Assembly (NCBI GenBank): GCA_964574415.1
Contig: CAZNNM010000004.1
Span: 103,459 to 167,458 of the forward strand
DNA from: an uncultured Rickettsiales bacterium
Lineage (GTDB): Bacteria; Pseudomonadota; Alphaproteobacteria; Rickettsiales; CAZNNM01
Direction: 5' to 3'
DNA length: 64,000 nt
Part shown: piece after piece, positions 3,037 through 60,983 of the stretch
Layout of the letters: each line of letters opens with the position of its first letter
Position numbering within the stretch: the first letter of the stretch is position 1
Translations under genes and position numbers: made by a program
Notes under the pieces: generated by a model
Database searches by the model: none
Seen by the model: the letters and a program-made list of their open reading frames with translations, nothing else
Told to the model about the DNA's origin: nothing

Positions 3037-3160
3037 TGTCATACCAGCGTAGGCTGGTATCCAGTCATATACTTGTGAGCGTAGAGAACACATAATGTAA
3101 TAGAGCGTTCGCTGTGTGCACCTGTTGGATAACTGGATTCCAGCCTCCGCTGGAATGACG
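3037..3160. repeat. Palindromic element family PE-1 (GTCAT[AT]CCAGCGTAGGCTGG[AT]ATCCAG ... CTGGATYCCAGCCTYCGCTGGRATGAC)
   Basis: Full copy between the gbsR-like gene and cydA. Terminal hairpin modules plus a central GTGAGCGTAG..CGTTCGCT palindrome. Confidence 0.85.
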
Positions 3161-3175
3161 AGTGGTTCGATCGTC

Positions 3176-3733
3176 TCATTTCTTATTCCCAGGAAACGAC
3201 TTTATCTTATCTTTCAATGCATAAAGCCGGTATACCTTTTCGCCCATTTTGAGTAGATGCACCAGGCGTTCGGTTTCCATTTTTTGCATGTCTTGATACC
3301 AATTGGTGAGCATTTCGATGAGGTCGTGCATTTCTTGCATACGGTGTTGTGCGTAGCGCTCTTCATCGCTGGATGGCCGCTCCAGCAGAATATCGCGCAG
3401 CATGGAGAGGGTAGGGTCGATTTCCCGTTTTTTGCGTTCTTCTACTAAAGTGCGGACGATTTCCCAGATATTATCCGGCGTGGTAAAATAATCCCGCCGA
3501 TCCCCTGGCAAATGCTGATGGCGCACCAGATGCCATGCTTCTAATTCTTTGATCCCCATGCTCACATTCGAGCGCGAGAAGCCCAAAGTCTCCGCAATCT
3601 CCTCCGCATTGAGCGGGCGTTCAGACACATACAGCAATGCATACATCTGCCCCACCGTCCGGTTAATCCCCCACCGGCTTCCCATCTCACCAAAATGGAG
3701 TACGAAAGTTTGTAAGAGTGGGGAGAGTTGCAT
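3176..3733 (-). CDS. GbsR/MarR-family winged-helix transcriptional regulator
   Basis: GEMGSRWGINRTVGQMYALLYVSERPLNAEEIAETLGFSRSNVSMGIKELEAWHLV is a GbsR-type wHTH. Same strand and directly upstream of cydAB. Confidence 0.7.
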   Translation of the reverse strand: MQLSPLLQTFVLHFGEMGSRWGINRTVGQMYALLYVSERPLNAEEIAETLGFSRSNVSMGIKELEAWHLVRHQHLPGDRRDYFTTPDNIWEIVRTLVEERKKREIDPTLSMLRDILLERPSSDEERYAQHRMQEMHDLIEMLTNWYQDMQKMETERLVHLLKMGEKVYRLYALKDKIKSFPGNKK

Positions 3734-3795
3734 AGTAGTTTTCCTAATTTCAGTAATTTCTGAAATTACTATAATTCATGTAGAGAGGGAAGTCA

Positions 3796-3917
3796 AGAGA
3801 GGGCAGGATGCGGCATTCAGGATTCAGGGATTGGTGTTATTTTTAATTTACAGTTGGATAATTGTTCATTGCTCCAATACTAATCCTCTGAATCCTGAAT
3901 GCCGCATCCTGCCCTCT
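3796..3917. repeat. Inverted-repeat element family PE-6 (AGAGAGGGCAGGATGCGGCATTCAGGATTCAGGG ... CTCTGAATCCTGAATGCCGCATCCTGCCCTCT), empty form
   Basis: ~33-bp arms facing each other across ~55 bp, between the gbsR-like and plsC-like genes. Confidence 0.85.
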
Positions 3918-3991
3918 AACTGTTAATTCTTTATTAATAGTTAATATGTAAAATAATATAATGAGACAACAGATAGATAGACAGATGTAAA

Positions 3992-58137: not shown

Positions 58138-58212
58138 AATATGCTATTAAAAGAGTAGCTTACGTGCTATAGCTCAATATGAAGAAATATTAAAATCATA
58201 TGGAGTTATTTT

Positions 58213-60780
58213 ATGGGGAACACCTATCTTTACAGTAACATTCTTGCAGGTGGCATTACTGTTAATCCACTAGAGGATGTCATACTATTTGACATATTGA
58301 ATCCTCAAGACCCAGGAATAATCGACTATCTGACTTATACTGTGGGCCAGTCCTCTATCAGTACAACAGGTGCTACAGGCCATATTAACACCGCATTTTT
58401 AAGCGGTGGTGCATTTGTGGTGGGTGATGGTACTACAGGTACATTAGCAGATAACTTAGGCAATCTTATCGATAGCACGCTGGCCACAACGTCAAAAGAC
58501 TATATTAGCGGCCTAGCAGGTGATGATACTATTGAAGGTGGCAAAGGTGCTGATCTGATTTATGGTGGCCAAGGTAATGATATTATCCGCAGCATTTCCA
58601 CAAGCGATGGGCGGGATACGGTTTATGGCGGCCAAGGTAATGATAATATTGACTATGGCACAACGCCCAATGCAGGTAATTTAATACTCTTTGGTGATAT
58701 GGGTGATGATACCATTAAAGGTGGTGAAAGTTTTGATGTAATTTATGGTAACTTAGGGAATGACAGCATTGTAGGTATTGCGGGTGGCGATGACAATAAC
58801 GATACTATCTATGGCGGTGCTGATAACGATACCATTAATTACAGCGCCTCTACCTCAAGCAATGTTCTTTATGGTGATTTAGGCGATGATACTATTACAG
58901 CGGGTAGTGGTAATGATCTCGTATTCGGTGGTGCTGGCAATGACTCTATCAGCAATCTGGGCGGCGGAGATGCAATTTATGGTAATGCAGGCGATGATAA
59001 TATTTCTGGCTCTGCAGGGACAGAAAAAATATTTGGCGGTCAAGGAAATGATACGATTTCAAACGGTGCCGGTAATGATCTTGTCTATGGTGATCTGGGT
59101 GATGATAAAATCACTGTATCAGCCGGTACAGGGACAAACCGCCCTCTGATTTACGGTGGTGATGGTAATGATACTATTGATGGTGCAACCTCTAACAACT
59201 TCCTGACATTAGTGGGTGGCAATGGCAATGACCTCATTTATGGTGGTACATGCTTTAACACCATGTATGGCGGCGCAGGTGATGACACAATTTATGGTGG
59301 TGCGCTGAATGATGTGATTTATGGTGGTGTTGATAACGATATTATCGTGATTGATGGTTCTACAACAGGTGCTGGCAATGATACTATTTTCGGTGATGCA
59401 GGCAACGATGTTATCCGCCTGAACTTAGCGCATGCGACGGATGATACGATGTTCGTAGTAGGATTTAATGGTGCTGAAGATAAAATCGAAGTTACCATGG
59501 AATCAGGTTCTGCAACGGATGTAACCGTGACACGCAGTAGCGGCGTAACGCTGGGGTTAGTAGGTGGCGATACAGTATCGCTTGCTGGTTATGCGGGCCA
59601 ATTAACGGCTACGAATCTAGTATTTGGCGATGGTACGCGTTTGCTGACAAACTGGGATGGTGCGGCAACGACGCTGACAGGTACAACGGTATCTGGCGGT
59701 GATCAATTAATTGCTGGTAATAATGGTGATATATTGATTGGTAATGCTGGTTTGGATAAGTTAATCGGTGGTGCTGGTAATGATGTGCTTTATGGTCATA
59801 CCACCACATTGACTGGCACAGCCGATTCTGCCGCAGATGATCTCAGAGGTGGTGCTGGTAATGATACTATTTACGGCGGTGACTTCGATTACATTTATGG
59901 TGGTGACGGTGCGGATGTGCTGTATTTAGATGGCAACACCAGCATGCATCTCATGAATAATGTAACTCTTAACGATCAGATTTCTGGTGTTGAGACGGTT
60001 AAGATTATATCCCCAAATGGAGCGACTACTTCAACAACGCTTGGCGTGGATAGTAACTATGTCTTATCACCTGGTTCTAGCGTATTAAATATAGATGCAT
60101 CTGGTCTAGCAAATCCTGGAGAGGATTTTACGTTTAACGGGAGTGCGAATGCTTATGCTGGTAATATCAATCTGATTAGCGGTGCGGGTGATGATAGCAT
60201 TAATGGCGGTGCTGGTGCGGATACGCTTGCTGGTGCTGCTGGTAATGATACTATTAACGCTGGTAGTGGTAATGACGTGATCACCGGTGGTTCTGGTAAT
60301 GATGTTATTGTGGGCAATACTGGTAATGATAGCATCAATGGTGGTGCTGGTGTTGATGTGATAACAGGTGGTGCTGGTGCGGATACTATCGATGCTGGTG
60401 CGGCAGATGGTGTTGCAGATGCCGTGGCATATACTGCGGCGTCTGAGTCTACCAGTGATAGCTATGATGTGCTTCAAAACTTCGTAAGTGGCACAGATAA
60501 GCTGGATTTCGGTACACCGACGGCGGCGGATACTACCCTCAATATTTCAGGTGCAGCGAATAATATTGCGGATGTATTAGCGCTTTATGCAGCTGATTCA
60601 GGGTTCAGCACTATTAATCAAATCGGTGATGTTGCAGTTATCACCGTAACAAGTGGTACGTTAAGTGGGCATAAATATGCTATTGTATCCGGCGATACAA
60701 CGGCGGCTTACTCATCATCGGTAGACCTGTTTGTAGAACTGGGGACGGGTAGTACGCTGGCATTTGGTGATATCCAATAG
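58213..60780 (+). CDS. RTX-type calcium-binding repeat protein (probable T1SS substrate)
   Basis: Dozens of GGxGxDxUx nonapeptides (e.g. GGKGADLIYGGQGNDII, GGAGNDTIYGG). No signal peptide. Acidic, Gly-rich 855 aa. Confidence 0.8.
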   Translation: MGNTYLYSNILAGGITVNPLEDVILFDILNPQDPGIIDYLTYTVGQSSISTTGATGHINTAFLSGGAFVVGDGTTGTLADNLGNLIDSTLATTSKDYISGLAGDDTIEGGKGADLIYGGQGNDIIRSISTSDGRDTVYGGQGNDNIDYGTTPNAGNLILFGDMGDDTIKGGESFDVIYGNLGNDSIVGIAGGDDNNDTIYGGADNDTINYSASTSSNVLYGDLGDDTITAGSGNDLVFGGAGNDSISNLGGGDAIYGNAGDDNISGSAGTEKIFGGQGNDTISNGAGNDLVYGDLGDDKITVSAGTGTNRPLIYGGDGNDTIDGATSNNFLTLVGGNGNDLIYGGTCFNTMYGGAGDDTIYGGALNDVIYGGVDNDIIVIDGSTTGAGNDTIFGDAGNDVIRLNLAHATDDTMFVVGFNGAEDKIEVTMESGSATDVTVTRSSGVTLGLVGGDTVSLAGYAGQLTATNLVFGDGTRLLTNWDGAATTLTGTTVSGGDQLIAGNNGDILIGNAGLDKLIGGAGNDVLYGHTTTLTGTADSAADDLRGGAGNDTIYGGDFDYIYGGDGADVLYLDGNTSMHLMNNVTLNDQISGVETVKIISPNGATTSTTLGVDSNYVLSPGSSVLNIDASGLANPGEDFTFNGSANAYAGNINLISGAGDDSINGGAGADTLAGAAGNDTINAGSGNDVITGGSGNDVIVGNTGNDSINGGAGVDVITGGAGADTIDAGAADGVADAVAYTAASESTSDSYDVLQNFVSGTDKLDFGTPTAADTTLNISGAANNIADVLALYAADSGFSTINQIGDVAVITVTSGTLSGHKYAIVSGDTTAAYSSSVDLFVELGTGSTLAFGDIQ

Positions 60781-60803
60781 TATGCTTGAGGTAAAACGAT
60801 CAG

Positions 60804-60836
60804 AAAAGGTTGCTCTTCGGGGTGGCCTTTTTTGTT
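60804..60836 (+). terminator. Candidate terminator after the RTX gene
   Basis: AAAAGGTTGCTC-TTCG-GGGTGGCCTTTTTT: a hairpin with several G-U pairs plus a T-tract. Confidence 0.4.
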
Positions 60837-60858
60837 ATGCTATTGAGTTTTTTATAAT

Positions 60859-60983
60859 TGTCATTCCAGCGTAGGCTGGAATCCAGCGCAATGTTTGTGA
60901 GCGATAGCGAACTCTTTATTTTATTATGTGTTCGCTCTGCTCACTAGTTTGATAACTGGATCCCAGCCTTCGCTGGGATGACA
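60859..60983. repeat. PE-1 copy
   Basis: TGTCATTCCAGCGTAGGCTGGAATCCAG ... CTGGATCCCAGCCTTCGCTGGGATGACA, between the RTX gene and tRNA-Leu. Confidence 0.85.

Follow-up and report, generated by a model that had tools for sequence, protein, structure and literature searches.

CGTC-like tagged hairpin repeats and a repeat-flanked Ssn-family gene in a 64-kb stretch of Rickettsiales DNA

We analysed the palindromic repeats in a stretch of 64,000 nucleotides from an uncultured Rickettsiales-like bacterium (assembly GCA_964574415.1, contig CAZNNM010000004.1, positions 103,459 to 167,458), which is called here the window and whose coordinates are used throughout. These elements are very probably CGTC-tagged repetitive extragenic palindromes (REPs), also known as Ssn-related motifs (SRMs), accompanied in the window by their partner, a gene of the Ssn family of GIY-YIG nucleases. 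The repeat class has already been described and is not a new category. The tagged hairpins are linked, both physically and evolutionarily, to an intact Ssn-type gene.

Two published descriptions are relevant to this assignment. The first one (Di Nocera 2013, BMC Genomics 14:522; PMC3733652) defined the CGTC-tagged REPs, families CGTC-1 to CGTC-4, by a CGTC or TGTC tag, a stem of 8-9 bp starting with AT, a loop of 4-5 nt and a tail of 3 nt. They form mostly head-to-head dimers, live mostly in alphaproteobacterial hosts and were equated with dRS3 of Neisseria and with RPE-4 and RPE-6 of Rickettsia conorii; no dedicated transposase was known for them (PMC3733652). The second one (Chenal 2025, Nat Commun 16:2388; PMC11893778) reported that the Neisseria NTS, CGTCATTCCCGCGMAVGCGGGAATCYRG, contains dRS3, and called the broader class SRMs. 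Its enzyme SsnA, a single-domain GIY-YIG protein of 94 aa, needs the hairpin to be single-stranded DNA for binding and cleaves a few nucleotides away on the upstream side. Mutagenesis revealed that binding depends decisively on the C that directly follows the palindrome, and cleavage on the three nucleotides that precede it. Four Ssn proteins were assayed biochemically; RNA and double-stranded DNA are not Ssn substrates, the characterised proteins bind neither of them, and the typical gene layout is repeat-ssn-repeat (PMC11893778).

Census of the repeats

The palindromic repeats reported in an earlier note on this DNA are real and lie where that note had placed them, the first PE-1 dimer starting exactly at position 3037 and the last one ending at 60983. 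Its five family-specific cores (palindromic element families PE-1 to PE-5) were all located in the window. In addition to these five there is at least a sixth family, PE-6 (TGTCAT..GGAyTTGAyCC..GTTGTTGCATGGCTC), with arms on both sides of PE-3 and PE-2 dimers at 17022-17256, 43527-43842 and 54073-54277.

The heptamer GTCATYC occurs 41 times, against 14.0 expected and a maximum of 24 in shuffled sequences. When only the flanks were searched for (GTC-AT-N14-21-AT-C[CT]), 45 sites were found, and in 33 of them the outer stem is free of mismatches over 5 bp or more; the GTC is preceded by C or T in all these 33 units. The stems of the other 12 sites do not exceed 3 bp, and this number fits the 8.4 expected by chance. 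There are 18 head-to-head dimers (four of PE-1, six of PE-2, five of PE-3, two of PE-4 and one of PE-5) and around 18 more solo units or arms, which gives a density of about 54 units in 64 kb. The published SRM pattern, HGTCWYN(0-2)YYVSBRHN(0-5)WNVSBRGN(0-2)RNCYNB (PMC11893778), is matched by 11 units, compared with a mean of 0.24 and a maximum of 1 in 100 dinucleotide-preserving shuffles, and the families that fail this hand-made pattern share its architecture.

All the genuine units are intergenic or reach only the ends of open reading frames (ORFs). Of the 22 intergenic gaps that exceed 150 bp, 16 contain elements, so the claim that nearly every such gap was filled did not hold. Regarding in-frame intragenic insertions of the RPE-1 type, none was found in the window, where the intragenic GTCATYC matches have no stem. 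Some dimers are nested inside other dimers, and certain copies are 96-98% identical to each other.

Unit anatomy and covariation

Although the elements had been described as palindromes of 30-125 bp, the basic unit is a hairpin of around 28 nt and the long elements are head-to-head dimers of two units. A unit (28-38 nt) consists of a (C/T)GTC tag, a stem starting with AT, a loop of 4-5 nt and a CCA tail, and in the full element two of them stand head to head on both sides of a family-specific spacer of 29-71 nt. The stem and the loop measure 8 bp and 4 nt in PE-1, 8 bp and 5 nt in PE-3, and 9 bp and 5 nt in PE-4 and PE-5. The PE-2 core, with an outer stem of 5 bp and a bulged interior, departs from the simple stem of 8-9 bp, and so does PE-6. 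As the reverse complement of the terminal tag (C/T)GTCAT reads ATGAC(G/A), both ends of every head-to-head dimer carry an ATG that faces outwards.

We aligned 26 simple units, 13 of them distinct. The stem substitutions had been proposed to be compensatory, and this was confirmed: 99% of the stem cells are paired and five of the eight stem pairs change on both sides (for instance T-A, C-G and A-T at stem position 3), with a covariation score that none of 500 shuffles reached. The co-resident families do keep their stems by compensatory change. As a control, sliding the partner by one to three columns lowered the pairing to 11-46%. The invariant columns are G1, T2 and C3 before the stem and C24 directly after it, precisely the positions that are decisive for cleavage and binding by Nm SsnA (PMC11893778), which agrees with the earlier proposal that selection maintains a nucleic-acid hairpin with a conserved terminus read by a protein. 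Therefore, with the SRM pattern enriched and with GTC before the stem and C after it invariant, the window fits both published descriptions.

The 12 simple dimers are all heterodimers whose units differ at compensated positions, typically ATCCC...GGGAT in one unit and ATTCC...GGAAT in the other, and PE-2 follows the same pattern (ATCGC...GCGAT on the left, ATTGC...GCAAT on the right). Within the units of the simple dimers only 2 of 198 pairs are mismatched, versus 32 of 198 when one arm is paired with the other, and therefore selection acts on the small tagged hairpin and not on the long palindrome.

These mismatches also bear on the explanation that the elements of 85-125 bp are miniature inverted-repeat transposable elements (MITEs), with long terminal inverted repeats (TIRs) bound as double-stranded DNA by a DDE-type transposase acting in trans. 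The whole elements do fold as long hairpins, far beyond what shuffles achieve (z from -5.7 to -10.3), and the nested insertions, the few copies with 96-98% identity and the different elements in the orthologous spacers of a related species would all suit MITEs. However, the small hairpins are intact while the arm pairing is broken at the compensated positions, and heterodimers of two different hairpins make up 110 of the 113 head-to-head dimers across all the loci fetched from other genomes. Furthermore, no target-site duplications were found at the elements, the flanks merely lengthening the palindrome, and there is no transposase in the window. We regard this explanation as very improbable.

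Regarding sequence conservation within families, the units are 92-100% identical and the spacers 58-79%. The asymmetry between C-type and T-type units is inherited together with its placement with respect to the asymmetric spacer. When folded as single-stranded DNA, the PE-1, PE-3, PE-4 and PE-5 units reach z values from -3.3 to -5.2. Thus, the statement that each core is self-complementary holds for these four families, and only in part for PE-2.

The ssn gene and its PE-2 dimers

An intact gene at 56954-57241 (+) encodes a predicted single-domain GIY-YIG nuclease of 95 aa of the Ssn family and has PE-2 dimers on both sides. According to Pfam scans it is literally true that no transposase is present in the window, as the earlier note said, but that note overlooked this gene. 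The upstream head-to-head dimer, at 56856-56935 (+), has CGTCATCGCGAGCCGAAGGCGCGGCGATCCA as its left unit and TGGATTGCCACGTCGCTTCGCGCCTCGCAATGACG as its right unit and ends 18 nt before the start codon. The downstream one, at 57246-57325 (+), begins 4 nt past the stop codon, and the two dimers are 98% identical.

The protein matches PF01541 at residues 4-75 (E 6.6e-14; 52.4 bits, with a cut-off of 22.6), and no further Pfam or NCBIfam family exceeds its cut-off in the 95 residues. Y6, Y17 and E64, the residues that were mutated in Nm SsnA (PMC11893778), are present at the catalytic positions with the same numbering; the likeness to Nm SsnA was judged from its published length, residue numbers and layout. 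A protein search retrieved 2661 homologues of the window Ssn, and an identical sequence of 95 aa is known from an NCBI contig of 211,220 bp. In the 81 homologues compared, Y6, R27, H31 and E64 are present in all of them and Y17 in 79. The window protein is 55-64% identical to metagenomic proteins that are flanked by CGTCATTCCCGCGAAAGCGGGAATCCA, which is the NTS core.

Linkage of ssn genes and repeats in other genomes

Scanning metagenome contigs with the window Ssn protein provided 80 loci, and a CGTC-type motif lies within 160 nt of the ssn homologue in 74 of them. The usual layout is one SRM(+) around 10-35 nt upstream of ssn and one SRM(-) around 5-25 nt downstream. The closest metagenomic homologues (63-67% identity) have GTCATTGCGAG...GCAATCC dimers, of the PE-2 type, on both sides, as in the window. 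The Ssn clade tracks the flanking repeat type: the mean Ssn identity is 62% within a shared repeat type versus 55% between types, which 0 of 2000 label permutations matched in a test that ignores phylogeny. Since the closest homologues share PE-2-type flanks and the clade follows the repeat type, PE-2 is presumably the cognate site of the window Ssn, and the simple-stem families would depend on paralogues in other parts of the genome or on cross-recognition. In a Ca. Yonathbacteria metagenome-assembled genome (MAG) a decayed ssn is preceded, at a distance of 10 nt, by the exact PE-3 hairpin and followed by an antisense unit; hmmsearch missed this decayed gene and tblastn recovered it.

Two other explanations have to be weighed against this linkage. 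One of them is that the elements are classical REPs or REPINs mobilised by a REP-associated tyrosine transposase (RAYT), that is, a Y1 transposase of the IS200/IS605 type encoded elsewhere in the genome. Short imperfect palindromes, a conserved unpaired tag and inverted intergenic doublets are indeed shared with those systems, and the likeness that the earlier note saw to REP/RAYT or IS200/IS605 was right in spirit. Nevertheless, the tag is (C/T)GTC in every unit and not GTAG, the partner is a GIY-YIG protein and not a Y1 transposase, and RAYT genes are flanked by GTAG repeats or unrelated TIRs but never by CGTC repeats (PMC3733652). Furthermore, none of the window's 48 non-overlapping ORFs with 100 aa or more was found to encode a Y1 transposase (PF01797), and it is a different nuclease gene, ssn, that is embedded in the repeats in the window and in relatives. 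Mobilisation by a RAYT is thus highly unlikely.

The other explanation is that the hairpins act mainly as RNA, as terminators, mRNA stabilisers or RNase targets, and that they stand beside ssn by coincidence. Such roles were proposed for REPs by Di Nocera 2013 (PMC3733652), and most of the copies do lie between unidirectional or convergent genes, several of them just past stop codons, as at ntrY/ntrX. However, the stems are not followed by T-tracts, only one terminator-like unit was found in 19.5 kb, and terminator-like sites are not enriched (17 versus 18.1 in shuffles). A role in RNA would also not account for the conserved GTC that stays unpaired before the stem or for the C behind it, both of which fit recognition by Ssn. 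Such units flank 74 of 80 ssn homologues, and the characterised Ssn proteins bind no RNA (PMC11893778). We therefore consider a mainly RNA-level function unlikely, although a secondary effect of the hairpins in RNA is possible; of the "DNA or RNA" hairpin suggested before, the evidence points towards DNA.

As a separate observation, there is an intrinsic-terminator-like hairpin at 44970-45020 (AAAAAACCCCTATCT...AGATAGGGGTTTTTT, 16 pairs and a T-tract). Judging from it, ordinary terminators in this genome look unlike CGTC units.

Distribution and turnover beyond the window

The exact 28-mer of PE-3, TGTCATTCCGGGCTTGACCCGGAATCCA, was found in at least 112 stretches of representative genomes. Among the matches listed, its carriers include MAGs labelled as Firmicutes, Chloroflexi, Nitrospirae, Deltaproteobacteria, Planctomycetes and Verrucomicrobia, and further several lineages of the candidate phyla radiation and one Rickettsiales MAG. 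It is also present in one Woesearchaeota bin, on a contig of just 2.4 kb, so that mis-binning is possible. In most of these listed loci a short spacer separates the 28-mer from another hairpin that differs from it and is inverted, the arrangement being head-to-head in 60 cases, tail-to-tail in 5 and head-to-tail in 2. In the viral contigs of IMG/VR the degenerate motif occurs in at least 120 stretches with 255 perfect-stem units, and no ssn was found in these stretches among the matches listed.

Two Logan contigs of a related species have genes that are 79-84% identical to those of the window, and the families PE-2, PE-5 and PE-6 occur there too. The spacer upstream of virB3 contains a PE-5-type unit in the related species versus a nest of PE-6, PE-3 and PE-2 in the window. 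The differing orthologous spacers, together with the nested copies and the pairs with 96-98% identity, show that the elements have been gained and lost over time.

Several observations weigh against the assignment to the Ssn/SRM class. In folding, the PE-2 units do not surpass shuffles (z about -0.2 to -0.5), nor do the PE-6 arms alone, and the SRM pattern matches PE-1 and PE-3 only and not PE-2, the family that flanks ssn. No ssn with PE-1-, PE-3-, PE-4- or PE-5-type flanks was found in the window, and with a single ssn there, all six families would depend on one Ssn if the genome had no paralogues outside the window. A close solved structure for the window Ssn was not found in the PDB (the best match was 1ZG2, E 0.047). 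The permutation test mentioned above has to be read with its disregard of phylogeny in mind. Finally, only 2-3 of the at least 112 loci with the PE-3 28-mer in other genomes have ssn within about 8 kb; this scarcity is expected for dispersed repeats, but it gives no support for the linkage.

Proposed mechanism

By analogy with the characterised enzymes, we suggest the following course of events. In single-stranded DNA a unit would fold into a small hairpin on one strand, and Ssn would bind this hairpin only in that state, reading the C after the palindrome and the GTC before it. The window Ssn would thus cleave single-stranded DNA, probably a few nucleotides upstream, just 5' of the tag. Replication, repair and DNA uptake or transfer might be the occasions on which the DNA is unwound. 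From its geometry, a head-to-head dimer would offer one correctly oriented sense site on each unwound strand, and this is the same geometry as that of the gene-bearing SRM(+)-ssn-SRM(-). Candidate pay-offs are the control of incoming or replicating single-stranded DNA, which would serve the host as in Neisseria, or selfish spread.

One step further, the dimers could be gene-less (MITE-like) derivatives of an insertion-sequence-like element SRM(+)-ssn-SRM(-), copied whole after cleavage of single-stranded DNA by Ssn. We put this forward tentatively and think it rather doubtful. It is suggested by the shared (+)/(-) geometry, the co-inherited asymmetry of units and spacer, the copies with 96-98% identity, the nested dimers, the differing orthologous spacers and the identical 28-mer across many phyla, and the support from the window is circumstantial. 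The analogy with insertion sequences was raised, without a test, in the discussion of PMC11893778. If it were true, there would be a class of mobile elements driven by a hydrolytic GIY-YIG nuclease and not by a transposase.

Positions of the elements

Apart from the two dimers around ssn, PE-2 dimers lie at 9755-9850 (+), between ntrY and ntrX, at 33511-33597 (+) and, in the opposite orientation, at 45717-45815 (-). A degenerate one at 43712-43802 (+) has lost its left tag and is inserted in a PE-6 arm, and solo PE-2 units are found at 5296-5325 (+) and 51927-51957 (-).

The PE-1 head-to-head heterodimers lie at 3037-3160 (+; stem ATnCCAGC with a 4-nt loop, single-stranded DNA fold z = -6.1), 12148-12257 (-), 14611-14729 (+) and 60859-60983 (+). 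In PE-3 the stem is ATnCCGGr, the loop CTTGA and the spacer around 51 nt, as seen in the heterodimer at 13408-13514 (+), and another heterodimer is located at 33632-33738 (+). Three PE-3 dimers are nested between PE-6 arms, one at 17067-17174 (-) and two heterodimers at 43582-43688 (+; fold z = -5.7) and 54116-54222 (-), the latter being 96% identical to the former. Incomplete PE-3 copies comprise a left unit with partial spacer and no right unit at 52131-52185 (+), and a spacer remnant with the right unit at 55790-55838 (+), which abuts the stop codon of the ORF 55245-55790.

There are PE-4 heterodimers at 5425-5533 (+; 9-bp stem ATnCTTGGA, fold z = -9.2), enclosed by a PE-5-like outer pair at 5361-5390 and 5556-5585, and at 51966-52074 (-). 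The PE-5 heterodimer at 45826-45914 (+) has 9-bp stems, ATACGCCGA and ATTCACCGA, and a fold z of -10.3, whereas a PE-5-like single hairpin at 42055-42085 (+) has the tag on both sides (GTCAT-ACGCCGA-TTAAG-TCGGTGA-ATGAC).

Regarding PE-6, the left arm at 17022-17062 (+) and its partner at 17217-17256 (-) enclose a PE-3 dimer and a PE-2 remnant; the left arm at 43527-43566 (+) and its partners at 43693-43712 and 43803-43842 (-) enclose a PE-3 and a PE-2 dimer; and the left arm at 54073-54112 (+), with its tag mutated to GCCAT, and its partner at 54238-54277 (-) enclose a PE-3 dimer. A further arm stands beside a PE-3 dimer at 33744-33783 (-), and single arms are found at 45677-45716 (+) and 55842-55881 (-).

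Start codons and other repeat-bracketed genes

The start codons of ntrY and trpC had been reported to lie in repeats, and both ATGs are indeed inside them. For ntrY, the longest ORF starts (12153) with the ATG contained in the terminal ATGAC tag (12149-12153) of the PE-1 heterodimer at 12148-12257. The annotated start of trpC, at 57289, belongs to the ATGGAT of the right unit of the PE-2 dimer downstream of ssn, and the next in-frame ATG, at 57319, is that of the terminal ATGAC tag of the same dimer. As the TrpC homologues have 262-268 aa and the annotated protein 282 aa, the annotated start is probably an over-extension. The search for TrpC homologues found none closer than 71% identity.

The C-terminus of the four-helix-bundle protein had also been assigned to these repeats, which was wrong, since the repeat at that place is an unrelated inverted repeat. 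The gene, at 6518-6892 (-), belongs to the "23S rRNA intervening sequence protein" family (PF05635 / TIGR02436) and is bracketed by the inverted repeat CTGAATCCTGAATGCCGMATCCT (6506-6924), which has no relation to the CGTC hairpins. This inverted repeat is found again without the gene at 3798-3917, with arms of 30 nt that are 100% complementary and 60 nt apart, and at around 63296-63392 there is a partial copy that the orthologous spacer in a related species (contig L235) lacks. Taken together, these copies resemble another small gene cassette accompanied by gene-less derivatives.

A second GIY-YIG gene, decayed and of another subfamily, is located between perfect direct repeats of 22 nt, GGTTCGGATAACGTCCACTAGG, which start at 39668 and 39958 (region 39668-39979) and have no further copy in the window. 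Its N-terminal part (..YYVYLLRS..IYKGLTKDLKMRF) and its C-terminal part (..YHAFTNEQRAREFEYYLKAGSGKAFANKRFW*) are in different frames.

Host and gene context

The window is DNA of an alphaproteobacterial chromosome with 42-50% G+C, and the nearest named homologues of its Der protein are labelled "MAG: Rickettsiaceae/Rickettsiales bacterium" (60-63% identity). It contains, among others, ntrY/ntrX, a fused ispDF and cytochrome bd genes, and the Rfam search of the window found two tRNAs only.

An rvh-like type IV secretion locus is located at 17836-33401, with virB4 followed by five tandem VirB6-like genes; the small ORF upstream of virB4 is virB3, as called in a contig of a related species (L234). 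The five VirB6-like proteins have 717-1114 aa and tails with Gly/Ser/Thr/Pro-rich and Asp/Lys-rich repeats. The Pfam scan of this locus covered VirB4 and the first VirB6-like protein, and in L234 the next two VirB6-like proteins have TrbL-domain calls. The protein of 855 aa encoded at 58213-60780 consists almost entirely of RTX-like repeats of the GGxGxD type (27 nt, 9 aa). These repeats make up most of the direct-repeat families D1-D3, D5, D8 and D14 and are unrelated to the hairpin elements.

Implications

In an uncultured Rickettsiales-like bacterium, the window offers a dense natural example of these repeats: its 64 kb contain around 54 units from six or more hairpin families, together with one intact ssn. 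It also illustrates that a reading of the letters alone can rediscover the CGTC-REP/SRM class. The compensated heterodimers indicate that the small hairpin is under selection and that a perfect long palindrome is possibly selected against, and the match between Ssn clade and repeat type fits pairs of enzyme and site that co-evolve. The PE-2-type sites would be a new specificity to test for tools acting on single-stranded DNA. In addition, one hairpin of 28 nt is identical, letter for letter, in MAGs of many bacterial phyla.

Comparison with known systems

No IS200/IS605 gene for TnpA (Y1) or TnpB between subterminal hairpins was found in the window. The REP, BIME and REPIN systems with RAYT share with the window the tagged short palindromes in inverted doublets, the doublet that behaves as the copied unit, a small nuclease-type gene flanked by its own repeats and the recognition of hairpins in single-stranded DNA. 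However, their tag is GTAG and not CGTC, and their enzyme is an HUH/Y1 protein with a covalent intermediate, whereas a GIY-YIG nuclease is hydrolytic. The NIMEs and Correia elements of Neisseria are similar as intergenic mosaics, in which dRS3-type hairpins bracket family-specific segments of 50-150 bp and families are nested. Nevertheless, Correia elements have TIRs of 26 bp, a TA target duplication and IHF sites, and none of these was seen in the window.

With the CGTC REPs of Di Nocera 2013 the window shares the tag, the AT-starting stems of 8-9 bp, the loops of 4-5 nt, the 3-nt tail and the head-to-head dimers. Conserved spacers, an alphaproteobacterial host, several families per genome and units overlapping ORF ends are also common to both, and so are dimers inside other palindromes, as reported for H. 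neapolitanus (PMC3733652). The differences are that no associated enzyme was known in 2013, whereas ssn is present here, that PE-2 and PE-6 are outside the description of a simple stem of 8-9 bp, and that in-frame intragenic insertions of the RPE kind were not seen in the window.

The Ssn/SRM system differs in three respects. The repeat flanking ssn in the window is PE-2 (GTCATYGCGAG...GCRATCC), with its bulged stem off the published pattern; at least six hairpin families stand beside one ssn in the window; and the heterodimers, the long family-specific spacers and the nested "wrappers" are not described in the parts of the text of PMC11893778 that were searched. On the other hand, both have a single-domain GIY-YIG protein of 94-95 aa with Y6, Y17 and E64, repeats on both sides of its gene, and a hairpin with (C/T)GTCAT on the 5' side, a palindrome and ATCC on the 3' side. 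They also have in common the hundreds of dispersed copies that would be expected and the enrichment in symbionts, including Rickettsia and Wolbachia.

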